A stretch of DNA of 51,312 nt from an uncultured Bacilli bacterium (GTDB lineage Bacteria > Bacillota_I > Bacilli_A > RF39 > UBA660). The notes beneath the pieces are model-generated. The model saw only the letters and a program-made list of their open reading frames with translations, did not search any database and was not told the DNA's origin. Position 1 is the first letter of the stretch. Each line of letters begins with the position of its first letter. The position numbers and the translations under genes are program-made. Shown in pieces: positions 39 through 51,312 of this stretch. The DNA is taken from contig CALVQM010000001.1 of assembly GCA_944358125.1 (NCBI GenBank), positions 1 through 51,312 of the forward strand, written 5' to 3'.

Positions 39-740
39 TTAACGATTTTTCATTATCTTGTCATAACTTCTAGGATATATTTCTTTAGTTTTTTTATTCT
101 TTTGGACAATTACTAAAGAACGATTACTTCCTTCTATTGGTAAATTAAATTTAATAGTATCAACAATTGTACTATCTAGTTTTTCTAATATTTTGGCACT
201 TTCTTTAATCTCTTCTTCACTTAAGCCTTTCATAGCAATTAATTTACCACCTACTTTTAAATAGGGAATTGATAATTCTAATAAAATACGAAGATGGGCT
301 ACAGCACGAGAAGTTACTATATCAAAGTATTCCCGGTAAGTTTTGGGTAAGTTTTCAGCTCGAGAATTAATACAAGTAACATTTTTTAAATTTAATTCTT
401 TGATAACTACTTCTAAAAATGCTATTTTTTTATGGTTAGAATCTAGTAAGGTTAGTTCAAGATCAGGATAAAATATTCTTAATACTATACCTGGAAAACC
501 AGCTCCAGTACCAATATCTAATAATTTTAAATTACCATTTAAAGAATACGCCTTTATAAGTGTTAGTGAGTCATAAAAATGTTTTAAATATATTTCTTCA
601 TCAGATTTAATGGCTGTTAAATTAAATTTTTTGTTATATTCTACTAGTAAATCTTTATATTTAGCTAAAGATGCTAAATTCTCTTTGGTAACTGAAATAT
701 TTAATTTTTCTACTTCTTTGATAAATGTTTCTATATTCAT
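39..740 (-). CDS. rsmG: 16S rRNA (guanine527-N7)-methyltransferase RsmG/GidB
   Basis: 233 aa with SAM-binding LLDIGTGAGFPGI motif. Lies directly downstream of mnmG, the classic mnmE-mnmG-rsmG order. Confidence 0.9.
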   Translation of the reverse strand: MNIETFIKEVEKLNISVTKENLASLAKYKDLLVEYNKKFNLTAIKSDEEIYLKHFYDSLTLIKAYSLNGNLKLLDIGTGAGFPGIVLRIFYPDLELTLLDSNHKKIAFLEVVIKELNLKNVTCINSRAENLPKTYREYFDIVTSRAVAHLRILLELSIPYLKVGGKLIAMKGLSEEEIKESAKILEKLDSTIVDTIKFNLPIEGSNRSLVIVQKNKKTKEIYPRSYDKIMKNR

Positions 741-749
741 ACAAACTCC

Positions 750-2606
750 TTATTTATCATATTTTTTCTTTAAGTATACTGTAAGTATCGCAATATCAGA
801 TGGGTTAACACCACTAATCCGAGTGGCTTGACCAATAGATATTGGTTTGATATCCTTTAATTTTTGTCTTGCTTCACTAGCTAGATTTAGAATATCATCA
901 TAATTAATATCTTTAGGTATTAGTTTTTCTTCTAATTTTTTAGCTTTTTCAGCTTCTTTATAAACTTTAGCGATATAGCCTTCATATTTAATTTCTATTT
1001 CTACTTCTTCTAATATATCTTCTCTATAGTCTAGTGGTATTATCTTTTTTATAATACCCATATTTATTTCAGGGCGTTTTAAGAATAAATAAAAATTAGT
1101 ACTAAAAGAAGGTATTTCAATGTTTAGACTTGTTAATAAATCTTTAGTTTCTGCATTCAATTTTAAGTTATTATTTCTTAAAATATTTTTAACTTCATTA
1201 ATTAAAGCTTCTTTTTCTTTTAGTTTATTAAATCTTTCTTCATCAATAGTACCATGATGATAGCCTATAGCTCTTAAACGTAAATCTGCATTATCATGGC
1301 GAAGAAGTAAGCGATATTCAGCTCGTGAGGTAAGCATACGATATGGTTCTTTAGTGCCTTTGGTTACTAAATCATCAATTAAAACACCAATGTAGGCTTC
1401 ATCCCTTCTTAAAATTAAGGGTTCTAATCCTTTTAATTTATGATGAGCATTAATACCCGCGATAAGTCCTTGAGCAGCAGCTTCTTCATAACCACTTGTC
1501 CCATTTATTTGACCAGCAGTAAATAAATTTTCAATTATTTTATTTTCTAGGCTGGTATTCATTTGGAGAGGGTTTAGAGCATCGTATTCAATAGCATAAG
1601 CATATTTACTAATTATAGCATTTTCTAATCCTTCTAGAGAATGAACCATATCCTCTTGAACACTTTTTGGCATAGAAGTAGAAAAGCCTTGTAAATACCA
1701 TTCATCATAGTAAATGCTTTCAGGTTCTAAAAATAATTGATGACGTTCTTTATCACTAAAACGAACTAATTTGTCTTCAATAGATGGACAATATCTTGGA
1801 CCTACTCCGGTTACATATCCACCATACATCGCTGATTTTTCTAAGTTATTTCTAATTATTTCGTGAGTTTTGGCATTAGTATATAAAAGATAACACTTTT
1901 GTTGTTCATTTATTTTGTAAAAAGGAGGATTATCAAAACTAAAAGTATAATATTTATTATCACCATTTTCCTCTTGCATTTTACTAAAATCAATAGATTC
2001 TTTTTTTATTCGAGGTGGTGTACCAGTTTTTAGTCTTTGAATATCTAAACCTAATCTTTTTAAGTTATCACTTAAGTTGTTACTTCTTGCTTCTCCATGT
2101 GGTCCACCGGGAGTATTTTCACTTCCAATTAAAATATTGGCTTTTAAATAAGTTCCGGTAGTTAGGATAGCACTTTTACTTTCAATCTTACTTTGATCAT
2201 TTAAAATTACGCCTTTTACCTTATTATTTTCAATTATTAAATCTTCTACCATACCTTCTTTGATTGTTAAGTTAGGAGTGCTATTTAAAAATTCTAACAT
2301 TACTTTAGGGTATGTTACTTTATCAGCTTGAGCACGTAAGCTTCTTACAGCTGGACCTTTACCATTATTTAACATCTTGATTTGAAAATGGGTACGATCA
2401 GCAACCTTGCCCATAATGCCACCTAGAGCATCTATCTCTCTTACAATAATACCTTTGGCTGTTCCACCAATAGATGGATTACAGGGCATGTCTGCAATAT
2501 TATTCTTGTTGGCTGTTATAAGAAGAGTTTTTAAGCCTAAATAAGCACCAATATGGGCAGCTTCACAACCAGCATGACCACCACCTACTACGATTAAATC
2601 ATACAT
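750..2606 (-). CDS. mnmG: tRNA uridine 5-carboxymethylaminomethyl modification enzyme MnmG/GidA
   Basis: N-terminal FAD motif DLIVVGGGHAGCEAA and a long GidA-type body. The track ORF starts at 2615 (GTG). The ATG at 2606 (MYDLIVVGGG) is the more likely start. Confidence 0.92.
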   Translation of the reverse strand: MYDLIVVGGGHAGCEAAHIGAYLGLKTLLITANKNNIADMPCNPSIGGTAKGIIVREIDALGGIMGKVADRTHFQIKMLNNGKGPAVRSLRAQADKVTYPKVMLEFLNSTPNLTIKEGMVEDLIIENNKVKGVILNDQSKIESKSAILTTGTYLKANILIGSENTPGGPHGEARSNNLSDNLKRLGLDIQRLKTGTPPRIKKESIDFSKMQEENGDNKYYTFSFDNPPFYKINEQQKCYLLYTNAKTHEIIRNNLEKSAMYGGYVTGVGPRYCPSIEDKLVRFSDKERHQLFLEPESIYYDEWYLQGFSTSMPKSVQEDMVHSLEGLENAIISKYAYAIEYDALNPLQMNTSLENKIIENLFTAGQINGTSGYEEAAAQGLIAGINAHHKLKGLEPLILRRDEAYIGVLIDDLVTKGTKEPYRMLTSRAEYRLLLRHDNADLRLRAIGYHHGTIDEERFNKLKEKEALINEVKNILRNNNLKLNAETKDLLTSLNIEIPSFSTNFYLFLKRPEINMGIIKKIIPLDYREDILEEVEIEIKYEGYIAKVYKEAEKAKKLEEKLIPKDINYDDILNLASEARQKLKDIKPISIGQATRISGVNPSDIAILTVYLKKKYDK

Positions 2607-2614
2607 AAATATCA

Positions 2615-3961
2615 CTACTTTCCTAAACAGAACTTACTAAATAGCGTATCTAATAGTTCATCTTGATAAGATTCACCGGTTATTTCACCAAGTAAATCCC
2701 AAGCTTTTTTAATATCAATGGCAATCATATCGACCGGAAGTTTACTACTTACGTTATTTAAAGCTTGGTCAATACTATTTAAGGCTTCATTAAGCAAGCC
2801 TATTTCTCTAGCACTTGATACTACTTCTAGGTTACTGTTATTAATACGTTCTAAATCAAATAATTCTCCTATTTTATCTTTTAATTTATCTAAACCATTT
2901 AAATCTACGGTATTGCCTTTTACAATATCATCTTTAGCAATTTTTAATTTGGTTGGTAAATCACTTTTATTAATGAAAGTTATGTGGGTTTTGTCTTTAA
3001 TTTTTTCCATAATTTCTTGATCTTCTTCTGTTAATGTCTCATTATTATTTAAGACATGAATTACAAGGTCAGATTCGTCTATTACTTTTAATGATTTATC
3101 AACGCCTATTTTTTCGACTACATCTTTTGTTTTTCTAATACCGGCGGTATCAATAAATTTTAGGGCAATGCCTTTTAGTTCAACTTCACCTTCCACAATA
3201 TCTCGAGTTGTACCAGCAATATCAGTTACAATAGCTTTGTTTTTATTTAATAAGGCATTTAAAATACTACTTTTTCCGACATTAGGACGACCTACAATAG
3301 CAACTTTGATACCATTCTCAACAATTTTACCGATTTTCCCTTCTTCAATTAAACTTTCTAATTCTTTTTTGATTTCCTTTAATTTGGGTGGAAGATTTTC
3401 TAAAGTTATTTCAAGGGCATCTTCGTATTCAGGAAAATCAATATTTACTTCAATATTAGCAAGAAGCTCAACAATAATTTCTCTTACGTTATTGATTTTT
3501 TTAGATACTTTACCACTTAAAGTATTAAGAGCTAATTTACGTTCCAAGTCGGTACGAGATTTAATTATACTGTTTACAGCTTGGGCTTCAGTTAAATCAA
3601 GGCGGCCATTTAAAAAAGCTCTTTTTGTAAATTCCCCTGGTTCGGCTAAACGAATGCCATTTGCAATTAATATTTCCAAGATTTTTTTGGTTGTTGAAAT
3701 TCCTCCATGAGAGTTAATTTCTACAATATCTTCTTTAGTATAAGTTTTTGGTGCTTTTAGGATGGTTACTAAAACTTCATCAATAACCTCACCATTGTTT
3801 ATAATATGGCCATAATGTATAGTGTGACTTTTTACTTCATTTAAGTTTTTGCCATCAAAAAGATTAGCAACTTTACTAATTGCCTCTTCCCCACTTACTC
3901 TAATAATAGATATAGCTCCTACTCCTAGAGCAGTTGATATTGCACAAATTGTATCATCCAT
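2615..3961 (-). CDS. mnmE: tRNA modification GTPase MnmE/TrmE
   Basis: 448 aa with G-domain motifs GRPNVGKSS and DTAGIR and the C-terminal FCLGK tail typical of MnmE. Confidence 0.92.
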   Translation of the reverse strand: MDDTICAISTALGVGAISIIRVSGEEAISKVANLFDGKNLNEVKSHTIHYGHIINNGEVIDEVLVTILKAPKTYTKEDIVEINSHGGISTTKKILEILIANGIRLAEPGEFTKRAFLNGRLDLTEAQAVNSIIKSRTDLERKLALNTLSGKVSKKINNVREIIVELLANIEVNIDFPEYEDALEITLENLPPKLKEIKKELESLIEEGKIGKIVENGIKVAIVGRPNVGKSSILNALLNKNKAIVTDIAGTTRDIVEGEVELKGIALKFIDTAGIRKTKDVVEKIGVDKSLKVIDESDLVIHVLNNNETLTEEDQEIMEKIKDKTHITFINKSDLPTKLKIAKDDIVKGNTVDLNGLDKLKDKIGELFDLERINNSNLEVVSSAREIGLLNEALNSIDQALNNVSSKLPVDMIAIDIKKAWDLLGEITGESYQDELLDTLFSKFCLGK

Positions 3962-38530: not shown

Positions 38531-39880
38531 TTACAATTTAGCTTTTATTTCTTTAATTGTTTGTTCTAATTCGTGATTAGTAAGTAATTCTTGAGATATC
38601 TTATCACAAGCGAATATTACTGTTGAATGATCTCGACCTCCAAATTCTAAGCCTATTCTTGGGAAAGTTTCATCTGTTTCCATTCGGCACAGGTACATGG
38701 CTAGTTGACGCGGATGAGCTACTTTGTTGCTTCGTTTCTTTCCTTTTAAATCTTCAATTGTTATATTATAGTGATCAGCGACGGCTTTTTGAATTTTGGT
38801 AATATTATTGTTAGAATAGATATTTTTATTAACAAAATCTTTTAAGGCTTCACAAGTAAATTCTAAATCAATTGTTTTAGGAACAATCATTGCGGTGTAT
38901 GCCATAAGTCTGTTAATTGCTCCTTCTAGAAATCTTATGTCATTTTGACAAGCATTAGCAATATATTCAATGCTTTCTTCTTTTATTAGGCCCGCTAGAC
39001 TAGTATTTTCGATTTTTTTCCTGATAATTCGACATCTTAAGTCAAAATCGGGTGGATAAATATCTACGGGTAAGCCCCACATAAATCTGGACCGCAGGCG
39101 TTCTTCTAAAATTTTTAAATCTTCTGGAGATCGGTCACTACTGATAATAATTTGTTTATTCGACTGATGTAGATAATTAAAAGTGTTGAAAAATTCTTGT
39201 TGGGTTTTTTCGGCTCCTACTAGGTACTGGATATCATCAATAATTAAAACATCTACATTGCGGTATTTATTTTTAAAATCATTGGCATATTCTACAGTAT
39301 TTTTGGCATTATCCGGATTAGCAATATTCGTATATTCGGTCATAAATTCATCACAAGTACAATATAATACTTTTCGATTAGAATTCTCTGTTATAAAATT
39401 ACCTATTGCGTGCATTAAATGCGTTTTACCAAGACCACTTTTTCCATATATAAATAAAGGATTATGGATTCGACCCGGGGCTTCTGCTACGGCCATGGCC
39501 GCTACTTTAGCAAGTCTATTGGTATCTCCTACGACAAAGTTATCAAAGTTTAGATTGGGATTTAGGTTTGTTTCAAAATTACTATTGTTAGTAACTTCAT
39601 TGTTATTAACAACTATATCAGGTGTTTCTTCAATATCACTTTCTAAGACAAATTCAATATCGTAATTTATATTGGTTATGCTAGCCAGTGTTTTTTCAAT
39701 TAAAGAATAATAATTATCTCCTAGCATTTTTTTATGAATTTCCATGGGGACTTTAAAAGTTATTTTATCACTTGTTAGACTTACAATACTCAAGTCATTG
39801 AACCAGGCATGGAAAGATGCTGGATTGATCTCTTTATAGATGTTATCTAAAAATAGTTTTAATAATTCTTCTTTATCCAA
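38531..39880 (-). CDS. dnaA: chromosomal replication initiator protein DnaA
   Basis: AAA+ Walker A GKSGLGKTHL, LIIDDIQ, and domain IV RDHSTV. Likely TTG start at 39880 after GGGGTGAGG. The track ORF extends to 39916. Confidence 0.93.
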   Translation of the reverse strand: MDKEELLKLFLDNIYKEINPASFHAWFNDLSIVSLTSDKITFKVPMEIHKKMLGDNYYSLIEKTLASITNINYDIEFVLESDIEETPDIVVNNNEVTNNSNFETNLNPNLNFDNFVVGDTNRLAKVAAMAVAEAPGRIHNPLFIYGKSGLGKTHLMHAIGNFITENSNRKVLYCTCDEFMTEYTNIANPDNAKNTVEYANDFKNKYRNVDVLIIDDIQYLVGAEKTQQEFFNTFNYLHQSNKQIIISSDRSPEDLKILEERLRSRFMWGLPVDIYPPDFDLRCRIIRKKIENTSLAGLIKEESIEYIANACQNDIRFLEGAINRLMAYTAMIVPKTIDLEFTCEALKDFVNKNIYSNNNITKIQKAVADHYNITIEDLKGKKRSNKVAHPRQLAMYLCRMETDETFPRIGLEFGGRDHSTVIFACDKISQELLTNHELEQTIKEIKAKL

Positions 39881-39916
39881 CTTTAACCTCACCCCACAGT
39901 CTGGACTTTTTAACAC

Positions 39917-41909: not shown

Positions 41910-42518
41910 ATGAATGTAGTAGTAAAAAGTGCTAAATTTAAAGAAGAAGCTTTAGAATTAGTTTTAAAGGAATTAAATGCAAGTGAAGAAGAAGTTGTCT
42001 ATTCTTTTAAGGAAGTTAAGGGTGGTCTTTTTAAAGGTGTTACTTATGAATGTAAGGGATTTTTAAAGACAGATATTTTAACTGAACTTCAAGAGTATTT
42101 AAAAGGTATAATAACGGGTATGGGCTTAGAAGTATCTTTTGAAGTTAATACAAAAGATGGTGTAACAACAATAAAGATGTATACTTCGAATAATCCAATT
42201 ATTATTGGTCATAATGGTCAAAATTTGGATGCGTTAACAACTATTGCTCGTCAATTTATTAAAAATATTACTTCTAATGGACCTAAAATACTTTTGGATG
42301 TTGAAGATTATAAGGATAGACAAGTAAAAAGATTAGAGCGACTTGCTAAGAATTTGGCTCGTGATGTTATAAAAACTAAAACAGATGTGGAAATGGATAA
42401 TATGAATTCTTATGAAAGAAGAGTTGTTCATAATGCTTTATCTGATTTTAAAGGCGTTAAGACAGAAAGTGTTGGAGAAGAACCTAATAGACATGTTGTT
42501 ATAAAATATGATAAATAA
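41910..42518 (+). CDS. jag: Jag/KhpB RNA-binding protein (Jag_N-KH-R3H)
   Basis: 202 aa with the R3H-type end MNSYERRVVHNALSDFKGVKTESVGEEPNRHVVI. Follows yidC. Confidence 0.9.
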   Translation: MNVVVKSAKFKEEALELVLKELNASEEEVVYSFKEVKGGLFKGVTYECKGFLKTDILTELQEYLKGIITGMGLEVSFEVNTKDGVTTIKMYTSNNPIIIGHNGQNLDALTTIARQFIKNITSNGPKILLDVEDYKDRQVKRLERLAKNLARDVIKTKTDVEMDNMNSYERRVVHNALSDFKGVKTESVGEEPNRHVVIKYDK

Positions 42519-42718
42519 GTACCTTAGGGTGCTTTTTTTGTGCAACGAAAAACCTCAGTTTTTGATGTGAATCCTGTTTGATAGACATCATAAAAAAACT
42601 TCTCATAATAAAGTCAAGTATTTTCTGCAAAATTTTTAACTTTATTTTTATTTTCTAGATTTTTAAATTTTAGATAAAAAATTATCTGATTTTATTAGGC
42701 AACTATTTGTAAAACGTG

Positions 42719-42747
42719 TTGACAACTTTTAATATTAGTGATAAATT
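42719..42747 (+). promoter_or_regulatory. sigma-A promoter of the peptide/AlaRS-like/radical-SAM operon
   Basis: TTGACA(42719)-17 nt-TAAATT(42742) with TG at the extended -10 position. Confidence 0.65.
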
Positions 42748-42775
42748 AATTACTAATATTTGAAGAGGTGAAATT

Positions 42776-42892
42776 ATGAGTGTGAGTTTTAAAGGAAAAT
42801 ACAATATTAAATCTATTATGATGATTACAGTATTTTCTTTCCTCATGCTCTTTATTTTAAATGACGTTGGTGCTAGGGCGATTTATCGCTAA
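42776..42892 (+). CDS. 38-aa hydrophobic peptide (MSVSFKGKYNIKSIMMITVFSFLMLFILNDVGARAIYR)
   Basis: Not in the ORF track. SD AGAGGTGA 5 nt upstream of the ATG. It is the first cistron after the promoter. Basic N-terminus, one TM-length hydrophobic stretch, no Cys. Confidence 0.5.
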   Translation: MSVSFKGKYNIKSIMMITVFSFLMLFILNDVGARAIYR

Positions 42893-42912
42893 ATTTTTTA
42901 ATTGTTAGAAAG

Positions 42913-43911
42913 TTGGTAATAATTGTGGAAGAAAAATTTAAAACGAAGAGTGAATATTTGGATTTTGTTGAACAAAAATTTAAAGATTGTTTTAGTAGTA
43001 AAGACTATATTGAAGAACAACCTGTAAATATAACATCTCAAGTTGATAAAACTGTTGATTTTATAGGCTCTAAAATTTCGCCATTAAAAAAATATGTTTT
43101 AACAGAAGATTTTGGTGAGAATGGAAGATTTTTGATTCAAAACAGTATGAAATTAAAATCATTACGGTATTTGAAAGAAACTACACCACAAAAATTTGGC
43201 TCTTATTATAAATGTATGGGAACACTTTCAAAGCCTGATTTGGAAAAAGTTGTATTTGATATGTTTGAATATTTAACTTATGAAAAATATTTAGGTATAG
43301 ATTTAGATGATATATGTATAAAGATTTGTTCCAAAGATGATGATTTAATGGGAGCTATAAGAAATGTTGATAGTAGAATAAATCGCGAAGTTGACAAAAC
43401 TAGTATTGAACATTATAGACATAAATATGGTATGTCTAAAGAAAATATAACGGGTAGAGATTTTAATATTGGAATTCGAAAAAAAGGTACTAATGATTAT
43501 TTTAGTTGTGGTACTTTTGTATTAATGGAATCTCCTGATAAAAAAATAGCAATAGATATGGGAATAGGTAATTGTTCTTTATCTATGTGCAAATTTGGTG
43601 TTGATTCAACTGTGCAAAGTTCACGAATGGCAGATTTAATTAATATAGATTCAATTGAAAAAGAAAAATTTGCTGATTCTTTAATTGCTGTCTCTACATT
43701 ATTAAAAGAGGATATAATAAATCATCCTTCTAAACATTTTAGAAAAAAATTTAGACTGTATTTTAATGCATTATCTTATTGGAGTGAAAAGTTAAATATT
43801 ACTGAAGAAGAAATATTAATTTATGCGTTGGACTATTTAAATTTAGAATATAAAGAAAATTTTTCATATACTGATGAAAGATTTGCTAAAATTTTAACAT
43901 TACATAAATAG
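42913..43911 (+). CDS. free-standing alanyl-tRNA-synthetase catalytic-core-like protein (divergent class II aaRS paralog)
   Basis: By-eye colinear match to the E. coli AlaRS N-terminal domain. VDFIGSKISPLKKYVL aligns with LLFTNAGMNQFKDVFL. YYKCMGTLS aligns with FFEMLGNFS. FEYLTYEKY aligns with WELLTSEKW. AIDMGIGNC aligns with VDTGMGLER. FADSLIAVSTLL aligns with IADHIRSCAFLI. No tRNA-binding or editing domains are present. The start codon is uncertain (TTG 42913 or GTG 42925). Confidence 0.55.
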   Translation: MVIIVEEKFKTKSEYLDFVEQKFKDCFSSKDYIEEQPVNITSQVDKTVDFIGSKISPLKKYVLTEDFGENGRFLIQNSMKLKSLRYLKETTPQKFGSYYKCMGTLSKPDLEKVVFDMFEYLTYEKYLGIDLDDICIKICSKDDDLMGAIRNVDSRINREVDKTSIEHYRHKYGMSKENITGRDFNIGIRKKGTNDYFSCGTFVLMESPDKKIAIDMGIGNCSLSMCKFGVDSTVQSSRMADLINIDSIEKEKFADSLIAVSTLLKEDIINHPSKHFRKKFRLYFNALSYWSEKLNITEEEILIYALDYLNLEYKENFSYTDERFAKILTLHK

Positions 43912-43925
43912 TAGGAGGTTAGAGT

Positions 43926-46061
43926 ATGAAGAAAGTTAATATTTTTGAAAATCCAGAATTTTATCGAAAAATGATATTGAAATATAATAGTTTACTAAAG
44001 TATGATATAGATAAATGTAATGGTAAATCATTGATATGTGTATTTTTTACATCATATTGTGGTGTTGGTTGTCCTTTTTGCTTTTTTCATTCTCCAAGTT
44101 TAAAGAAAGAAAATAACTTATTAGAAGAATTAGAAAATCATTTTTCAAGAGATGGAATAGAAAAATTTATTTCATTTGCAAATGAATCTAATGTTGGCTA
44201 TTTACAAATTTCTGGTGGTGGAGAGCCTTTTTTAGAAAAAAATGCAATTATAGAATGCTTGAAAAGAGTAGAAGCTGATAGAATTATACTTGTAACAAGT
44301 GGCTCTTGGGCATTTGATAAAGTGAAAGCAGAAGAGTATATTGATGATTTGTATGATGCTTTTAATGAACGAAAAAGTAAAGCTAGGGTAACTATTAGAC
44401 TTAGCGTTAGTGATTATCATAATATAAAATTAAAAGGAAAACCGGTTGTAAATTTAATAAAAATTTTTGATGATAAATATAAGAATGATAAAAATTTTAC
44501 TTTACAATTAAAAACTTTTGAAAATGATAATTCTCTTGTAAATTTATTAAATGAGTACTTTCCAGGATTTAAGCTAAATATTGTAGAAGATAATGGTTCA
44601 GACGATTTCAATCACATCAAGATTATGCCTTGGAAGTATGTGTTAACTTTAAAATCTGGGTTTAAGATTATTGTAGGAAAATCTAGAATTTTTAATTCTA
44701 ATTTGCGTCCTAATTTATATGATAAAGAGGAAATAAGGAAAAGTGAAAAGATATATGATACTGATTTAGAGTTATCTCAGAAAAATAATTCATCTATTGT
44801 TTATAATAGTAATGGTATTAATGGAATTGATTGGATTGTAGAGTATAATGGTAATGTGTGTACTTGGCAAAATAGAGTTCAAGATAATTTGTTAAATATA
44901 TATGAAGATAATTATAATGATGTTTTGCGTAATACTTATAGTGATCCACTTACTTATTCTTATATAGATAAGGGAGCAAAATATAGGGAAAAAATAGTTA
45001 GTGAGGTGTCTCCTAAAACAGTTTCTTTAATGAAATCTGTTAATATTCGTGATTATGCAGGAACACAATTATTTTTGGATGAGAAAATAAGATTATACTA
45101 TACAATAAGAGTAATACAAGATTATCTTTTGGAAGATAAAATAAATACCGATGTTTTAAATGAATTTCCTAAAGAGTTAATAAATGCAATTAAATCTAAT
45201 TTAAAGGAGTTGAAATGTAATTATTTTAAATCAAATTATAGTATTTTAGAACAAGAGTTAAGTATTCCTGTAAATGCATTGGAACTTCACGATTTTTTAG
45301 AATTAGTAAAATTAGGACATTTTGAAATTTCTGATGATAAGGTACAAAAGGCTATTAAGTATTATAATTTTATTTCCAATAGTAATATTAATAGTATTGA
45401 TGAAATCAAATGTTCTAGTGATTTAGAAATTGAAAAAAGACTGACAAAAAGAATGATGGAAAGGAAAAAGATTAAATCTGAAGAGGCACCTATATATTAC
45501 TATTTATGTAGGCATGGTGAAACAAATTGGAATGTTGAAAAGCGAATTAAAGGACAGTTAGAAACTATTGATACAGAATTCACTGAGCGTGGTATTAAAC
45601 AGATTGAAACTCTTGCAACTTTTATTGAATCTAATAATGTTCAAGCTATTTTTTCTTCTGATTTGAGTAGAACTGTGGAAACTGCTAGAATAGTAAATAA
45701 CAAAATTAATGTTCCTTTATATTTCTATAATAAATTTAGAGGGTTAAACATGGGAGACTTTCAAGGTAAATCTATTGATTGTTTTTTAAATGATGACTAT
45801 GTGAAAGAATGCTTTAAAGATTATAATTTAGTTATACCTGGTGGCGAAAGTATAAATCAATTAATATCTAGATTTAAAGATGGTATGGATATTATAAGAA
45901 ATAAGTATAATTATGATAGAGTTTCTATTATTTCTCATGGTGCTGCAATTAGTAATATTAAATCATCAATAAGTGGAGATAAATATGAAAATATTGATTA
46001 TTGTGTTTTGAAATATTATAATAATAATTATGAAATAGTTGAGTATGGAAACTACAATTAA
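43926..46061 (+). CDS. radical SAM domain / unknown middle domain / histidine phosphatase (PGM-family) fusion protein, 711 aa
   Basis: N-terminus has the CX3CX2C motif in FFTSYCGVGCPFCFF plus ISGGGEPF. The C-terminus (from about aa 520) has LCRHGETNWN...SDLSRTVETA...ISHGAAI, the RHG/H phosphatase signature. SD AGGAGG lies 7 nt upstream. Confidence 0.8.
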   Translation: MKKVNIFENPEFYRKMILKYNSLLKYDIDKCNGKSLICVFFTSYCGVGCPFCFFHSPSLKKENNLLEELENHFSRDGIEKFISFANESNVGYLQISGGGEPFLEKNAIIECLKRVEADRIILVTSGSWAFDKVKAEEYIDDLYDAFNERKSKARVTIRLSVSDYHNIKLKGKPVVNLIKIFDDKYKNDKNFTLQLKTFENDNSLVNLLNEYFPGFKLNIVEDNGSDDFNHIKIMPWKYVLTLKSGFKIIVGKSRIFNSNLRPNLYDKEEIRKSEKIYDTDLELSQKNNSSIVYNSNGINGIDWIVEYNGNVCTWQNRVQDNLLNIYEDNYNDVLRNTYSDPLTYSYIDKGAKYREKIVSEVSPKTVSLMKSVNIRDYAGTQLFLDEKIRLYYTIRVIQDYLLEDKINTDVLNEFPKELINAIKSNLKELKCNYFKSNYSILEQELSIPVNALELHDFLELVKLGHFEISDDKVQKAIKYYNFISNSNINSIDEIKCSSDLEIEKRLTKRMMERKKIKSEEAPIYYYLCRHGETNWNVEKRIKGQLETIDTEFTERGIKQIETLATFIESNNVQAIFSSDLSRTVETARIVNNKINVPLYFYNKFRGLNMGDFQGKSIDCFLNDDYVKECFKDYNLVIPGGESINQLISRFKDGMDIIRNKYNYDRVSIISHGAAISNIKSSISGDKYENIDYCVLKYYNNNYEIVEYGNYN

Positions 46062-46080
46062 AGTTGAAAAGAGGATAGCT

Positions 46081-46785
46081 ATGGTTTTATTTTTGACTAG
46101 TAACATTGGTGGAATAAAAAAGGAAAATGGGCAAAAAATACCTGTAGAGTTTTATTCTAAAAATCAATTTTTGTTAAATATGAAAAAAAGTTTAAAAAAT
46201 AATAAAAAGTTTGTGTTAATTGCAAGTAATCCGTTTAATTTCGAACAAAACGATAAATTTTTAGAAATGGATATAGAAGCATTAAAATTATCTAATTTAT
46301 CTTTTGATGAATGCTTAATATTAGATAATAGAAACAAAACTAAAGTTTCTGAAGTTTTAAAGGATAGTTCATTGATATTTTTGTGTGGGGGAAATACATA
46401 TATTCAAAATCAATTTTTTAATGAGATTGATTTAAAAAACTATATTAAAGATTTGGATTCTACTATCGTTGGTATTAGTGCAGGTGCTATTAATTCTGCG
46501 GATATTGTATTTAATAGTCCAGAAGAAGATAATGATTTATCTAATCCATATATATTGGTGGGATTAGGTTTGACTGAATTTAATATAGAGCCTCATTTTG
46601 ATATACATAATGATAATATACTTCAAATGAAATCAATTTTAGATGAGTCTTATAAAAGAGTAATTTATGGATTACCAGACGGCTCTTATATTGTGGGTAA
46701 CAAAGTATATGGTAGGTGTTATAAAATTTATCAAGGTAATATTGAAATAATATGTAATGATAATGAGTGTTTTTTACTTGAGTAG
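46081..46785 (+). CDS. peptidase S51 (PepE/cyanophycinase-like) family protein
   Basis: LIFLCGGNTYIQ, the nucleophile motif VGISAGAINS, and IEPHFD. ATG at 46081, 5 nt after AGAGGA. The track ORF starts at 46039. Confidence 0.75.
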   Translation: MVLFLTSNIGGIKKENGQKIPVEFYSKNQFLLNMKKSLKNNKKFVLIASNPFNFEQNDKFLEMDIEALKLSNLSFDECLILDNRNKTKVSEVLKDSSLIFLCGGNTYIQNQFFNEIDLKNYIKDLDSTIVGISAGAINSADIVFNSPEEDNDLSNPYILVGLGLTEFNIEPHFDIHNDNILQMKSILDESYKRVIYGLPDGSYIVGNKVYGRCYKIYQGNIEIICNDNECFLLE

Positions 46786-46844
46786 AAATTTATTAATAAC
46801 TTAATTGTGCATTTGTCATAAAATATCTTAGAGGAGGATGTTTT

Positions 46845-48203
46845 ATGGCTAAAAAGGTTGTTATTGATCCTGGTCATGGAGGAGAAGATCCTGGAACTAG
46901 TGCTAATGGAATTGTTGAAAAAGATTATACTTTGTTAATTAGTCAATATATGGCTGATCGTTTAACGGAACTAGGAATAGAAAATGCTTTAACTAGGGAT
47001 AGTGATGTTACACTTGATTCAACGACAAGACCTAAGACTGCTCAAAGTTTATTTGGTACGGGTAGTGATGTTATTTTGGTATCTAATCATATTAACGCTG
47101 GTGGTGGAGATGGAGCAGAAATAATTTATGCTTTAAGAAATAGTGATACTTTATCTAGTAAGATAGCTAGTGAATTTATTAAGTCTGGACAAAATGTAAG
47201 AAAGTATTATCAAAGAAGACTTCCTAGTAATTCTAGTAAAGATTATTATTACATTTTAAGAGAAACACCTAATAATGAATCTATTATTGTGGAATATGGC
47301 TTTGCTGATTCAACAGGGGATGATGTCAATCAAATTAAAAATAATTATAAAGAACTTGCTGAGGCAGTTGTAAGGGCTCTTGCTAATTATATTGGTGTAG
47401 CTTATACAGCTCCAGCAGGAAGTGGTGGTAATTATTATACGGTTAAAGCTGGAGATACTTTATATGGAATTGCAAGAAATTATGGTATTAGTGTTGATGA
47501 ACTTAAAGCTGCTAATAATTTAACAAGTAATACTCTTACGATTGGAGAAGTATTAATTATTCCGGAAGTAGAGACACCAGAAACTCCTGATGAAAATATT
47601 TATATTGTTAAAAGTGGAGATACTCTTTATTCTATTGCCAATAAATATGGGATGAGTGTTAATGAACTTAAATCTTTAAATAATGTTACAAGTGATGTTT
47701 TATCTATTGGTCAGGAATTAATAGTTAGTGAAGGTAACGCAGCAACACTCGATACTTATACAGTTAAATCTGGTGATACTTTGTATAGTATTGCTAATAA
47801 ATATGGTTTAACAGTAAATGAATTAAAGCAACTTAATAATTTAACTAGTGATATTTTAAGTATTGGACAAGTGTTAAATATTAGTAATAGTGTATCATCT
47901 CCTAACCCATCTAATACTTATACAGTTAAAAGTGGAGATTCTTTATATAGTATTGCTAAAAAGTATGGTATAACGGTAGATGCTTTAAAAAGTGCTAATG
48001 GAAAAACTTCTAATTTACTTTCTATTGGAGAAATATTAGTTATACCAACTACAACAGCGACTACTAGAACTTACACTGTTAAATCTGGTGATAGTTTGTG
48101 GAAAATAGCTACTAATTATGGGGTTAGTGTGAATGCTTTAAAGCAAGCGAATGGCCTTACAAGTGATCTTTTATCAATAGGTCAAGTACTTGTAATTCCT
48201 TAG
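46845..48203 (+). CDS. N-acetylmuramoyl-L-alanine amidase (Amidase_3) with five LysM repeats
   Basis: VIDPGHGGEDPGT...HINAGGG catalytic domain. Five tandem LysM repeats of the YTVKSGDTLYSIA..YG..V..LK..N.L.S..L.IGQ.L.I type. No N-terminal signal peptide is visible. Confidence 0.9.
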   Translation: MAKKVVIDPGHGGEDPGTSANGIVEKDYTLLISQYMADRLTELGIENALTRDSDVTLDSTTRPKTAQSLFGTGSDVILVSNHINAGGGDGAEIIYALRNSDTLSSKIASEFIKSGQNVRKYYQRRLPSNSSKDYYYILRETPNNESIIVEYGFADSTGDDVNQIKNNYKELAEAVVRALANYIGVAYTAPAGSGGNYYTVKAGDTLYGIARNYGISVDELKAANNLTSNTLTIGEVLIIPEVETPETPDENIYIVKSGDTLYSIANKYGMSVNELKSLNNVTSDVLSIGQELIVSEGNAATLDTYTVKSGDTLYSIANKYGLTVNELKQLNNLTSDILSIGQVLNISNSVSSPNPSNTYTVKSGDSLYSIAKKYGITVDALKSANGKTSNLLSIGEILVIPTTTATTRTYTVKSGDSLWKIATNYGVSVNALKQANGLTSDLLSIGQVLVIP

Positions 48204-48321
48204 TTTTAAGAAGTACTCTTGAGATTATTTTTGAAAAAATATTAATTGATAATTTTTTGTTTATAAAAATTAAAAGTAAAAAATTCTTGTTAATCTATTC
48301 GAAATATGATATATTGAATAT

Positions 48322-48398
48322 GTAAGTGTTATCTACTTAGTGGATAACGCCTGCATTGTAGCAAACGTTATGCCTTTTGGCTAACGTCTTTTCTTTTG
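48322..48398 (+). ncRNA. antitoxin-like small RNA, repeat copy 3
   Basis: Promoter TTGTTA(48287)-17 nt-TATATT(48310). Conserved GTAAGTGTTATC start. The terminator stem CGTTAtGCC/GGCTAACG carries compensatory C-G to T-A changes relative to copy 1. Confidence 0.6.
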
Positions 48399-48461
48399 CT
48401 CATCTCTAATAATAGAGATAAGTAAAATTATTATAATCAGTAATAATCTAGTATCACACAT
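48381..48461 (-). CDS. type I toxin-like hydrophobic peptide, 26 aa (MCDTRLLLIIIILLISIIRDEQKKRR)
   Basis: SD GGAGGG 6 nt upstream of the ATG. Promoter TTGCTT(48589-48594)-17 nt-CATAAT(48566-48571). Leader of about 100 nt whose 5' GCCUGCUUUC can pair with the SD region GAAAGUAGG. The last codons overlap the convergent sRNA. Confidence 0.55.
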   Translation of the reverse strand: MCDTRLLLIIIILLISIIRDEQKKRR

Positions 48462-48642
48462 TTACATCCCTCCTACTTTCATAAAACCCCCTGAATAAAA
48501 TCCAAGTAGTTATTACTACTCATAAAAAGAAAGCAGGCGCTACCACCAGTTAGATAACAGCATCTATTATGAAACTTTGTCTATAAAAAAGCAAGAGAAA
48601 GCGTTCGACAAATACTGACGTTTTCTGACATCTGTGTCGAAA

Positions 48643-48672
48643 ATAAAAAAATACCTATTTATTAAGGTATTT
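48643..48672 (-). terminator. intrinsic terminator of the XRE gene pair
   Basis: Minus strand AATACCT-loop-AGGTATT overlapping the stop, followed by TTTTTTTATTTT. Confidence 0.6.
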
Positions 48673-49113
48673 AGGATGGTCTATTTTACCAAGTAAATAA
48701 TCCGCAGAGATATTATATTTTTTACATATTTGGTATAAATAAGTTGTAGCAATAATATAATTCCCTTTTTCATATTTTGCTAACATAGAATTATCTACAT
48801 TTAAAATATCCGCTAATTTAATTTGGGTAAGATTATTTTCTTTTCTGATCTCTTTTAATCGTTCACTAGATAATTTGATATTAATTTCATCTCTTAAGTT
48901 TTTATATTTTTTAATATTAGTAAATTCAAATATATAATCAATTGAGACATTAAAATAGTTACATAAAGTATTTAGATGTATTATCGGGATGGTTTGCTCT
49001 TCTTTTTCATACCTGCTATATAAACTATCAGATATTTTTAATAAATTAGATATTTCAATATTAGTTTTCCCATATCTATCTCTTAATTGATATAATTTTA
49101 TACCATAGTTCAC
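48655..49113 (-). CDS. XRE-family regulator with two HTH_3 domains, 152 aa
   Basis: Two HTH repeats (ISNLLKISDSLYSRYEK and LADILNVDNSMLAKYEKG). GTG start at 49113 by alignment with the paralog at 49236..49694. Confidence 0.8.
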   Translation of the reverse strand: MNYGIKLYQLRDRYGKTNIEISNLLKISDSLYSRYEKEEQTIPIIHLNTLCNYFNVSIDYIFEFTNIKKYKNLRDEINIKLSSERLKEIRKENNLTQIKLADILNVDNSMLAKYEKGNYIIATTYLYQICKKYNISADYLLGKIDHPKYLNK

Positions 49114-49156
49114 GTATATCACCATATACAATTTCTCATATCTACGTTTTTTTGAC

Positions 49157-49235: not shown

Positions 49236-49694
49236 TTAACTAATATAACTTTTAGGTTTATCTGTTTTTCCTAATAGATAATCAGCGGAAATACCATATT
49301 TTTTGCAGATTTGGTATAAATAAGAAGTAGCAATTGGAAAAAGTGCTCTTTCATATTTTGAAATTGTAGAATTATCTGTATTTAATATGGTTGCAATTTT
49401 TAATTGAGTTAATTTGTTTTCTTTTCTAAATTCCTTTAATCTTTGAGAAGATAAGTTAATATTTATTTCTTTTTTAGATTTGTTATAGTTTTTTAATTTA
49501 GTAAAATTAAAAATATAATCTAATGAAACACCAAAATAATTACATAAAGTATTTAAATGTTTTATTGGGATAGTTTGCTTGTTTTTTTCGTATCTGCTAT
49601 ATAGGCTATCAGATATTTTTAATAAGTTTGCCATTTCTACATTAGTAAGTCCTTGACGATCTCTTAAATTAAATAGTTGTTTTCCATAGTCCAT
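49236..49694 (-). CDS. XRE-family regulator with two HTH_3 domains, 152 aa (tandem paralog)
   Basis: Colinear with 48655..49113 at roughly two-thirds identity by eye. Confidence 0.85.
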   Translation of the reverse strand: MDYGKQLFNLRDRQGLTNVEMANLLKISDSLYSRYEKNKQTIPIKHLNTLCNYFGVSLDYIFNFTKLKNYNKSKKEININLSSQRLKEFRKENKLTQLKIATILNTDNSTISKYERALFPIATSYLYQICKKYGISADYLLGKTDKPKSYIS

Positions 49695-49840: not shown

Positions 49841-51184
49841 TTGAAGATAAATAAAGAAATAGAATTTGAAATATTACATTCTAATAAACATAGAATATAT
49901 CTTTTATGTGGTATTGTCTGTGTAGTGGTACTTATGGTTACTTTAATTGTTACGACATCAAAAGCTAAATATAGAACTACACAGAGTATTCATTTCATAC
50001 AGGGAACTATTAATTATTCTCCATATGATTATAGAACAGTAGCTATGTATATAGATGGAGAACCAGTAGATAACATTACCTGATGGTAAATATGAATTAA
50101 CAGAAGAATCATATTGTACTAATGAAGAGAATGTTAAAGATGAATCTATAACACTAAGTTATGATAGTGCTACTCAAGGGTTATTAATTACTCCGATGAA
50201 TAAGAAAGGAACAAAGTGTTATTTATACTTTGAGGAACAAAAGCCATCGAAAGATGTAATATTAGCTAAAGAAGGAGGAACAGCCGCAATAGAAGCAAAA
50301 GGAACTCCAAACTTTGCAACTGTTGCCACAACCGATATGGGAATGTATGCAGCCGAAGATGATTATGGAACAAGTTACTATTATAGAGGAGCTGTTCAAG
50401 ATAACTGGGTGCAGTTTGGAACAGATAGTAGTGGACAAGCACTCTATTGGAGAATCATAAGAATTAATGGAGATGCAACCATAAGACTCATCTATAATGG
50501 AATCAGTACTGCTCAAACAGGGGATAGTACTATGATAAGTACAGAAGAAGTATTCAATAGTGGTTGGAATGATAATATGTATGTAGGATATATGTACACG
50601 AATGGTCAACTGCATGGTTTGGGAACGAATAGTGATATCAAAACAACTATCGATAATTGGTATGCGAGTACTTAGCAGATGAAGCAGAATATTTAGAAGG
50701 GAGTACAGGCTTCTTTGGAGATAGAACTATTGATCCAACAAGTAGTGGAACCGGAATAGGAACTAGTGCTACTGATTATGCAGCCTATCACCGATTAGTA
50801 AGTAATAAAGCCCCAATATTAACCTGTCCAGATAAGCAAGACTTGTATACAACAAGCGGAAGTAGTACAGGAAATGCAGCGTTACAATATCCAGTAGGAC
50901 TCATCACTGCTGATGAAGCCACGTTTGCAGGGACTTTTCCATGGTCTGGCAATAATAATAATAATTATCTAAAGACAGGACGCTCATACTGGACTATGTC
51001 TCCGTATCACGGTTTCCATGCTTACGTGTTTTATGTGGCTTATTCCGGCAGTATGGGTGGCTACTACGTAGATGAAACGTTTGAGGACTCGTATGGCGTC
51101 AGACCAGTCATAAACCTACGTGCTGATATAGAAATAACCGGCTCCGGAACAACATCCGACCCATTTAAATTATCAGTCGAATAA
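49841..51184 (+). pseudogene. frameshifted paralog of the 500-aa surface protein
   Basis: Three consecutive ORFs (49841..50083, 50196..50675, 50657..51184) are colinear with 8619..10121. Shared segments are AKYRTTQSIHFIQGTINYSP, NKKGTKCYLYF, YWRIIRINGD, NWY and YWTMSP...GVRPVINLRADIEITGSGTTSDPF. Frame changes fall near 50070..50083 and 50664..50669. Confidence 0.8.
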
Positions 51185-51312
51185 TATTATCAGTCGATTT
51201 TAAAAAATTTGGTTTAAAAGCTAGACTTTTTTTGCGTTTTCGACTGATAACATTTATAAATTTAACAACTGGTTTAGTAAATCTTGGTCATCATTCCAAT
51301 CTTCAAGATACT

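Follow-up and report, generated by a model that had tools for sequence, protein, structure and literature searches.

A mobile cassette linking a radical SAM–histidine phosphatase fusion, an alanyl-tRNA synthetase-like core and an S51 peptidase: a candidate route to aminoacylated modified nucleosides

Introduction

What chemistry would call for a radical S-adenosylmethionine (rSAM) enzyme fused to a histidine phosphatase, a protein resembling the aminoacylation core of alanyl-tRNA synthetase (AlaRS) and a serine peptidase of family S51, encoded side by side? The question arises at positions 42719–46785 of a 51,312-nucleotide stretch of DNA from an uncultured Bacilli bacterium of the RF39 lineage (contig CALVQM010000001.1, assembly GCA_944358125.1; the whole stretch is hereafter called the window), where a first-pass annotation had proposed an undescribed operon of four cistrons: a 38-aa hydrophobic peptide, a 332-aa AlaRS-like protein, a 711-aa rSAM–phosphatase fusion and a PepE-like peptidase. 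Our answer, to which we assign a probability of roughly 0.45 on the strength of comparative sequence analysis, structural models and analogy with known pathways, is that the three large genes may constitute a mobile three-enzyme operon that would turn a nucleotide into a modified nucleoside capped with an amino acid, and would also control the cap.

Conservation and mobility of the cassette

A search with the 711-aa protein returned 129 homologues, with full-length fusions in Clostridia, Christensenellaceae and Patescibacteria and unfused proteins of ~520 aa in other phyla; one protein (P0022, 951 aa) joins rSAM, histidine phosphatase and S51 domains in a triple fusion. Scanning 185,579 species genomes for the rSAM family gave 70 loci, whose neighbouring genes were grouped by open reading frame (ORF) clustering and iterative hidden Markov model (HMM) searches. 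An AlaRS-like gene lay within 5 kb of the rSAM gene in 11 of the 70 loci and an S51 gene in ~14 (S51 HMM matches: 15 loci), the co-occurrence loci coming from Bacilli, a Clostridia metagenome-assembled genome (MAG), Shapirobacteria, an alphaproteobacterium and Janthinobacterium, and showing at least three gene orders. All three genes are adjacent in MAGs of Bacilli, Clostridia, Patescibacteria and Alphaproteobacteria. Starting instead from the AlaRS-like protein, we recovered 28 metagenome loci, 13 of which carry the rSAM–phosphatase gene (in full, truncated at a contig end or in decayed form), and most of these 13 also carry S51 where the contig is long enough. Co-occurrence across phyla and the triple fusion identify the three large genes as a conserved linked unit. 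The first-pass annotation would have been refuted by a failure of its four genes to recur together in other genomes; the three large genes do recur together, and the 38-aa ORF does not.

In loci L001, L002, L003 and L018, the three genes and a large serine recombinase make up a ~5.86-kb insertion (8809–14681 in L001, 3697–9560 in L002) that splits a DacA-type D-Ala-D-Ala carboxypeptidase gene exactly at the codons of its SITKIMT (SxxK) motif, with a AAAATCATGAC-type core at both junctions. Because they are the sole cargo of a small serine-recombinase integrative element, the three genes are self-sufficient, and by comparison of these loci their sole-cargo status is strong evidence for both a functional unit and horizontal transfer. 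No relatives of the rSAM or the AlaRS-like family were found in 2.9 million viral contigs, and an origin of the cassette in phages was rejected for this reason. The rSAM family is concentrated in host-dependent lineages with small genomes, namely Patescibacteria, Chlamydiae, Paracaedibacteraceae, Legionellaceae, DPANN and tiny gut Bacilli.

Degraded copies were also seen. In L081 (6372–8437) the rSAM–phosphatase gene is in fragments and S51 is intact, and in L082 (7986–9266) both the rSAM–phosphatase and the AlaRS-like gene have decayed, with a phosphatase remnant beside an intact S51 gene; decay of this kind is typical of a dispensable gene. Among the neighbouring gene families, c1, c6, c19 and c23 were considered and rejected as distant AlaRS-like or S51 homologues (hhalign probabilities ≤1.3%). 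Family c59, which lies upstream of the rSAM gene in L005, gave no match to the AlaRS-like profile; it has a local BLASTP match to residues 283–358 of E. coli AlaRS (E 2e-4).

The three enzymes

The 711-aa protein (43926–46061, plus strand, preceded by the Shine–Dalgarno (SD) sequence TAGGAGGT) proved to be an intact fusion of an N-terminal CX3CX2C rSAM domain and a C-terminal RHG phosphatase, just as first described. Its rSAM part (43926–45480, plus strand), a core of ~520 aa, consists of a partial TIM barrel followed by a large conserved beta/helical domain, and the beta/alpha core occupies residues 35–253 of an AlphaFold model with a pLDDT of 91.8. Pfam places Fer4_12 and Radical_SAM at residues 32–144, with Fer4_12 above its cut-off (29.8 bits vs 22) and Radical_SAM below (21.4 bits vs 29.5). 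The CX3CX2C cysteines (C45/C49/C52) and the GGGEP motif (97–101) are invariant in the family; the cluster motif, G97-G99-E100-P101 and the partial TIM barrel together identify a member of the radical SAM superfamily. Between barrel and phosphatase lie ~270 strongly conserved residues with no relative in Pfam, NCBIfam or the PDB. The PADLOC pVip model aligns residues 37–126 with positions 2–78 of 257 (E 1.2e-5), and viperin_w_prok, the NCBIfam viperin model, is absent from the matches of the protein, which was rejected as a viperin or pVip since the match is confined to the N-terminal ~90 residues and does not extend over the full length. No SPASM or RRE domain was matched in Pfam or NCBIfam.

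The histidine phosphatase domain (45490–46061, plus strand) was identified from Pfam, invariant columns and Foldseek. His_Phos_1 (PF00300) matches at residues 526–707 with E 1.7e-33 (116 bits vs a cut-off of 21.7), and the catalytic residues are RHGET 529–533, R582, E641 and H671, of which RHGET, E641 and H671 are invariant in the family. Foldseek matches this domain to PhoE, CobC and PspA-type phosphatases (TMt 0.75–0.80), and with R529-H530-G531 conserved alongside the other catalytic residues it belongs to branch 1 of the histidine phosphatase superfamily, although it reaches no NCBIfam equivalog cut-off.

The AlaRS-like gene (42913–43911, plus strand) encodes 328–332 aa: TTG at 42913 is the first possible start (332 aa), whereas close relatives start four codons later, at the equivalent of GTG 42925 (328 aa), behind an AAGGTGG-type SD, and this GTG is the likely start here. 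Sequence comparison alone gives a faint signal, with a weak NCBIfam alaS match (E 1.8e-5, 23.5 bits vs a cut-off of 529) and a weak profile match to the PDB AlaRS 1riq (E 0.039). Alignment with residues 1–461 of E. coli AlaRS by hhalign is colinear, 15–265 on 8–300 (E 2.5e-4). The resemblance is nevertheless real, and the fold search is decisive: with an AlphaFold2 model of pLDDT 91.7, the top 24 Foldseek matches in the PDB all come from AlaRS, with catalytic fragments in the first 19 places (best E 5e-15, query TM 0.71–0.75, identity 14–17%), and GlyRS-alpha and AsnA rank far behind. On this model the protein has the class II AlaRS aminoacylation-core fold, and the colinearity claimed by the first-pass annotation is upheld by hhalign. 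It ends after the first helices of the tRNA-recognition domain, lacks the editing and C-Ala domains, belongs to no Pfam family and exceeds no NCBIfam cut-off; its length of 332 aa, its alaS score below the cut-off and an unaligned motif-3 arginine set it apart from a complete AlaRS. At the position of the motif-2 Arg69 (residue 80) the family is basic (K in 21 and R in 12 of 33 sequences). D/E215 stands at the position of AlaRS Asp235, which holds the amino group of the substrate, and G217 at that of Gly237. A 'PS-K-HFR' helix aligns with the AlaRS 283–310 region, which contains the acceptor-stem contact Asn303. All 105 homologues of this protein are unnamed.

For the S51 gene, the mechanical ORF starts at 46039, and the likely start is ATG 46081 behind the SD AAGAGGA, which therefore leaves 19 nt after the 711-aa ORF and yields a 234-aa serine peptidase of the PepE/cyanophycinase type (46081–46785, plus strand). 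PF03575 matches with E 5e-13 (49.6 bits vs a cut-off of 23.9), and in an alignment with the alpha-aspartyl dipeptidase 7c9b 'GISAG' pairs with 'GSSAG' and 'EPH' with 'NPH', so that the Pfam match, the GxSAG serine and the catalytic histidine all place it in peptidase family S51. It was rejected as a PepE equivalog (NCBIfam PRK05282, 30.3 bits vs a cut-off of 156); the original label of PepE-like serine peptidase is thus right about the family, but does not extend to PepE itself. Across the cassette, gene content, folds, intact catalytic motifs, linkage and mobility are shown by the searches, alignments and models.

Partners of the rSAM family

In a profile search of 1.84 billion representatives, the rSAM family comprised at least 152 clusters at 50% identity (E ≤ 1e-30), and its members are combined with a recurring set of enzymes. 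C-terminal fusions to NUDIX (L042-type, ~675 aa) and adenosine-deaminase domains (L053-type, ~815 aa) occur; Nudix, A_deaminase or RpiB–Nudix genes lie immediately downstream of the rSAM gene in other loci; separate histidine phosphatase genes stand beside it in other lineages; and dTMP-kinase-like and adenylate-kinase genes flank it in some loci. Because all partners handle free nucleotides or nucleosides, the rSAM substrate is likely to be a free nucleotide, and probably a purine. RlmN/Cfr-like rSAM genes are neighbours in six loci. The rSAM core is also embedded in very large proteins, among them P0358 (1474 aa), with a SIR2_2 domain N-terminal to the core, P0354 (1466 aa), with a weak PHP match, and P0405 (6629 aa).

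Replacement cassettes

Six AlaRS-like loci with enough flanking sequence lack the large rSAM gene (L090, L091, L093, L094, L103 and L104), and all six instead have a different rSAM of 280–290 aa and a HAD/NT5C-type phosphatase beside S51 and the AlaRS-like gene. PADLOC pVip models align with this small rSAM along most of their extent (E 1.2e-20), and its profile matches viperin and viperin-like structures (7n7h, 5vsl, 6b4c and others) as well as PqqE, BlsE and MoaA. None of its homologues is named viperin and the NCBIfam viperin model is not among its 25 best matches, so 'viperin-like' is used here for a resemblance, membership being unproven. As judged from these loci, the four functions (rSAM, phosphatase, AlaRS-like and S51) come together again while two of the slots are filled by non-homologous parts. 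Both rSAM families can also be present at one locus: at L035/L036 (7797–9443), a 548-aa protein that matches the small viperin-like profile (E 2e-26) is encoded just upstream of a large-family rSAM gene and a Nudix gene.

The AlaRS-like slot is itself replaceable. In L106 and L107, two tandem asparaginyl-tRNA synthetase (AsnRS) genes occupy it (6897–9743 in L106), between the viperin-like rSAM and S51, with an APH-type kinase gene also following the pair. The two copies, each scoring above the asnS cut-off, share 93% identity and differ almost exclusively in residues 319–445 of the catalytic domain (e.g. GASQRED vs GACQKED). Such a recent duplication with changes in the catalytic region suggests either self-resistance to a synthetase inhibitor or a recruited ligase. 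Operons that hold more distant AlaRS-like genes (25–32% identity; L099 390–4985, L100 4841–9565, L101 5023–8843) also encode an HD phosphohydrolase, a SAM methyltransferase, an AsnA/AsnRS-like class II core and a peptidase of the S66 LdcA/MccF type, and they form a second cassette that is apparently undescribed. The grouping of a class II synthetase derivative with a serine peptidase and a phosphohydrolase is, from the gene neighbourhoods compared, a recurring theme.

In related tiny-genome Bacilli, one rel gene (RelA/SpoT, ~480–500 aa) precedes three different cassettes: rSAM–phosphatase, B12-rSAM, AlaRS-like, S51 and MBL protein in L011, L022 and L026; HAD, a 226-aa protein, small rSAM, S51 and AlaRS-like in L090; and an NT5C fusion, small rSAM, two AsnRS, S51 and APH in L106 and L107. 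The site has the look of an accessory hotspot with changing content. Directly after S51 in L093 (9994–11675) lie genes for an AbiLi/AriA-like AAA ATPase (PADLOC E 2.6e-36) and a 179-aa partner.

Operon layout and genomic surroundings

In the window, the four ORFs and their tight packing, with gaps of 20, 14 and 19 nt and good SDs (TAGGAGGT and AAGAGGA) before the last two, were all reproduced as first annotated. The candidate sigma-70 promoter at 42719–42747 (plus strand), described as strong, is a pattern match: TTGACA-17-TAAATT with an upstream TG is present, but in this AT-rich DNA such matches are no commoner than in shuffled sequence (47 vs 46.8 expected), and by itself the match carries no weight. 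Both the −35 and the extended −10 are kept in L072 although the DNA upstream differs, and it is on position and this conservation that the promoter remains a candidate.

The 38-aa hydrophobic ORF (42776–42892, plus strand, with an SD) did not hold up as a conserved operon member. Its SD and N-terminal 25 codons are kept in L071–L073, relatives of ~95% identity in which frame-changing indels of 10 nt and 1 nt alter the C-terminus; ten other loci have no counterpart upstream of the AlaRS-like gene, and iterative HMM searches gave no matches. Comparison of these loci thus indicates a clade-specific ORF outside the conserved unit, which could encode a small membrane protein or a leader peptide, or could be spurious. 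Overlapping its end and stop codon is a weak terminator-like hairpin of 5 pairs with a T-run (42877–42900, plus strand), conserved in sequence in L071–L073, where the T-run is longer; a leader-peptide attenuator for the operon is possible from this arrangement. An Rfam scan of 42400–47000 found no riboswitch or T-box leader.

The replication origin lies within the window, with a change in the sign of GC skew at ~40000 and dnaA at 38531–39916 (minus strand). The cassette operon follows rpmH–rnpA–yidC–jag (plus strand, up to 42518), at the end of which there is a terminator-like hairpin. The usual jag–mnmE–mnmG–rsmG block is rearranged: rsmG, mnmG and mnmE, all intact, lie on the dnaA side of the origin at 39–3961 (minus strand), some 38 kb away from jag. 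The break in the jag–mnmE linkage noted earlier is therefore genuine, as is the amidase reported downstream. The amidase gene (46845–48203, plus strand; Amidase_3 and five LysM repeats by Pfam) is a neighbour outside the conserved cassette, and its position is held by the serine recombinase or other genes in related loci. No plus-strand terminator was found in 42900–48600, so this amidase may be co-transcribed with the cassette. Beyond it are tandem paralogous regulators (48655–49131 and 49236–49694, minus strand), each apparently with two XRE-type helix-turn-helix (HTH) units; a two-stretch HTH match was obtained for 48655–49131 only, an ORF that also gives RstR-, PezA- and MqsA-like matches, and the paralogy of 49236–49694 to it is a reading of the translations by eye. 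GC content is 0.37 at 50000–51312 against ~0.25 elsewhere in the window, and two overlapping plus-strand ORFs in that region (50196–50675 and 50657–51184), neither with an NCBIfam match, could be a split or foreign gene. For the cassette itself, base composition gave no clear signal of foreign DNA (25% GC vs 26–30% in the flanks).

Interpretation

From comparative genomics and predicted structures we infer a substrate, a product, an order of steps and a biological role for the cassette. The rSAM domain would use a [4Fe-4S] cluster and SAM to form a 5'-deoxyadenosyl radical and modify a free nucleotide, probably a purine, and the fused histidine phosphatase would then remove phosphate, giving a nucleoside or a lower phosphate. 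The AlaRS-like protein would bind this nucleoside in the former ATP/adenylate pocket and attach an amino acid, whose donor is probably an aminoacyl-tRNA by analogy with AcmF of the ascamycin pathway, the alternative being direct ATP-dependent activation. Hydrolysis of the aminoacyl bond by S51 would serve producer self-protection, recycling or activation. What the pathway would yield is an aminoacyl-nucleoside resembling an aminoacyl-adenylate or the 3' end of an aminoacyl-tRNA, which could act either as a secreted antibiotic or as an intracellular antiviral; given the phosphatase and Nudix partners, a nucleoside is favoured as end product over a triphosphate chain terminator. The chemistry sketched in the first-pass annotation survives in that an aminoacylated modified nucleotide or nucleoside fits both the rSAM partners and the substitution by a viperin-like enzyme, but since AcmF uses Ala-tRNA, direct amino-acid activation by the AlaRS-like protein is not the sole, and perhaps not the likeliest, mechanism.

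Several observations weigh against this proposal. About 55 of the 70 rSAM-family loci have neither an AlaRS-like nor an S51 gene, so aminoacylation would be an add-on of some lineages rather than a property of the family. The rSAM has no informative neighbour in sequence or structure: a profile search of the PDB with the rSAM core alone gave no significant match, viperin included, and when the 711-aa model was compared with the PDB and BFVD by Foldseek, matches to the phosphatase domain dominated, generic rSAM folds reaching a TM of ~0.2–0.26. In the AlaRS-like family, hhalign does not align the class II motif-3 arginine, so any catalysis by that protein is putative. Adenosine-deaminase fusions, counted above among the nucleotide-handling partners, could merely dispose of 5'-deoxyadenosine. 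The known activities of S51 enzymes are those of Asp-X dipeptidases and cyanophycinases and do not include nucleoside deacylation, and the cassette contains no exporter gene.

The strongest competitor, which we consider distinctly less probable than the aminoacyl-nucleoside pathway without dismissing it, is viperin-like anti-phage immunity, in which the rSAM-modified nucleotide, a chain terminator or signal, acts inside the infected producer cell, and the other three activities (phosphatase, AlaRS-like and S51) serve to tune, store or detoxify it; this reading differs from the preferred reading in role and in site of action. It would account for the pVip match of the rSAM N-terminus (weak, at E 1.2e-5), for the pVip-like nature of the alternative partner rSAM, for kinase neighbours that recall the viperin–kinase pairing, and for a cassette that is mobile, patchy and sometimes decayed. 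One family member is fused to SIR2_2, a defence effector domain, the AbiLi/AriA-like ATPase directly follows the cassette in L093, and a STAND-like LuxR/NB-ARC/TPR protein, its domains read by eye, is encoded upstream in L014–L016. However, a triphosphate chain terminator would not survive a fused phosphatase or Nudix domain, PADLOC has no system that the cassette matches, the 711-aa protein lacks a match to the NCBIfam viperin model, and L093 is the one defence-gene neighbour seen, no systematic enrichment test having been made. The absence of relatives among the viral contigs is neutral for defence, giving no counter-defence signal.

We judge improbable a housekeeping or conditional role in the RNA or nucleotide metabolism of reduced genomes, such as tRNA or rRNA modification or nucleotide salvage and repair, with the AlaRS-like protein as a tRNA-binding specificity subunit. 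The concentration of the family in host-dependent small-genome lineages, the RlmN/Cfr-like neighbours in six loci, the part of the tRNA-recognition domain retained by the AlaRS-like protein and the position of the operon after rpmH–rnpA–yidC–jag are all in keeping with such a role. A housekeeping function sits poorly with a cassette that makes up the entire cargo of a serine-recombinase element, has decayed to pseudogenes in L081 and L082 and is replaced by non-homologous cassettes at the rel-adjacent site, and the Nudix, adenosine deaminase and nucleotide-kinase partners act on free nucleotides. Finally, an rSAM enzyme with a peptidase is a common pattern in clusters for ribosomally synthesised and post-translationally modified peptides (RiPPs), and immediately upstream here is the hydrophobic 38-aa ORF with its good SD; this ORF would be the precursor, the rSAM the maturase and S51 the leader peptidase, with the AlaRS-like protein adding an amino acid. 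That the peptide is absent from all other cassette loci, its C-terminus being altered by indels in relatives of 95% identity, that the rSAM has no SPASM or RRE match and that all rSAM fusion partners are nucleotide enzymes makes this very improbable, and a RiPP biosynthetic cluster was rejected on the lack of a conserved peptide and of a SPASM/RRE match.

If the aminoacyl-nucleoside pathway proves correct, a new rSAM family of at least 152 clusters would join the short list of those acting on free nucleotides, which currently includes viperin, MoaA, QueE and OxsB; AcmF-type re-use of the AlaRS core would extend from one Streptomyces pathway to many uncultured lineages; and nucleoside-type bioactives would be expected from tiny-genome gut Bacilli and bacteria of the candidate phyla radiation (CPR), whose chemistry is essentially unknown. 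More broadly, and only tentatively, there may be a widespread class of pathways in human-gut Bacilli, CPR bacteria and intracellular symbionts, serving as weapon or antiviral, that combines new rSAM nucleotide chemistry with an AlaRS-core cap to make aminoacyl-nucleosides mimicking aminoacyl-adenylates or the end of a charged tRNA, immunity being conferred by an Asp-type serine peptidase or a duplicated synthetase. With three genes on a 5.9-kb element, the cassette is a unit directly testable by synthesis and heterologous expression.

Comparison with known systems

The first-pass annotation knew of no characterised pathway combining these families. None was matched by the three large genes in Pfam, NCBIfam, PADLOC, PHROGs or the PDB, and a literature search on the gene combination, or on an rSAM/Nudix/SIR2 conflict system, found nothing relevant apart from a review covering AcmF; the claim therefore stands for the libraries, but it had overlooked the ascamycin precedent of AcmF and AcmE. 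Described as a truncated AlaRS-like protein reduced to its aminoacylation and tRNA-recognition domains, AcmF of Streptomyces lacks most of the ATP-binding and alanine-activating residues (it carries N219Q and D232E) and moves alanine from Ala-tRNA(Ala) onto the nucleoside sulfamate dealanylascamycin; AcmE, a neighbouring hydrolase, is proposed to remove it (PMC12945691). AcmD of the same cluster is an AlaRS (PMC12945691; gene table in PMC4257720). In both systems a cut-down AlaRS-like protein with degenerate ATP-site residues stands beside a putative decapping hydrolase in a cluster that tailors, or here would tailor, a nucleoside, and the ascamycin cluster also has a radical SAM gene, AcmH, of B12 type; the architecture and gene context of our AlaRS-like protein fit those of AcmF, a likeness drawn from the description of AcmF rather than its sequence. 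The two differ in host (Actinobacteria vs gut Bacilli, CPR and Alphaproteobacteria), in sulfamate machinery (present there, absent here), in hydrolase (alpha/beta hydrolase there, S51 here) and in the rSAM, which here is of an unrelated, uncharacterised family and fused to a histidine phosphatase.

With viperin, pVips and CMPK2-type kinases the cassette would share an rSAM acting on a free nucleotide, a pairing with kinases and an accessory, mobile distribution, and a viperin-like rSAM fills the same operon slot in sister loci. In contrast to viperin, the 711-aa protein matches pVip models over its first ~90 residues only, and has its own 270-aa C-terminal domain and a phosphatase that would undo a triphosphate product. 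Class II core paralogues such as AsnA, EpmA/PoxA, HisZ and BirA-type proteins are likewise cores without the full tRNA-binding apparatus put to non-translational use, but none is derived from AlaRS, and the AlaRS-like family has no Pfam or NCBIfam model. Microcin C MccF (S66) and clusters with resistant synthetases also pair a serine peptidase with aminoacyl-nucleotide chemistry, and the likeness extends to the distant AlaRS-like genes adjoining S66 peptidases and the sister operon with duplicated AsnRS; the window, however, has S51 rather than S66, no conserved precursor peptide and no extra full-length synthetase, and a microcin C-like system was rejected because none of the four proteins of the proposed operon matched ThiF (MccB), S66 or GNAT.

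In puromycin biosynthesis, the Nudix enzyme Pur7 and the phosphatase Pur3 strip phosphates and Pur6 attaches an amino acid, and in oxetanocin biosynthesis the HD phosphohydrolase OxsA works with the B12-dependent rSAM OxsB. Their key enzymes are not homologous to those described here, Pur6 not being synthetase-like and OxsB depending on B12, yet the logic is the same: a nucleotide is modified, its phosphates are stripped, and an amino acid is attached, with a removable group for self-resistance. The proposed pathway is in this sense of a known kind, the tailoring of a nucleoside by an AlaRS-like transferase and a decapping hydrolase as in one Streptomyces pathway, while the rSAM family at its centre is new.

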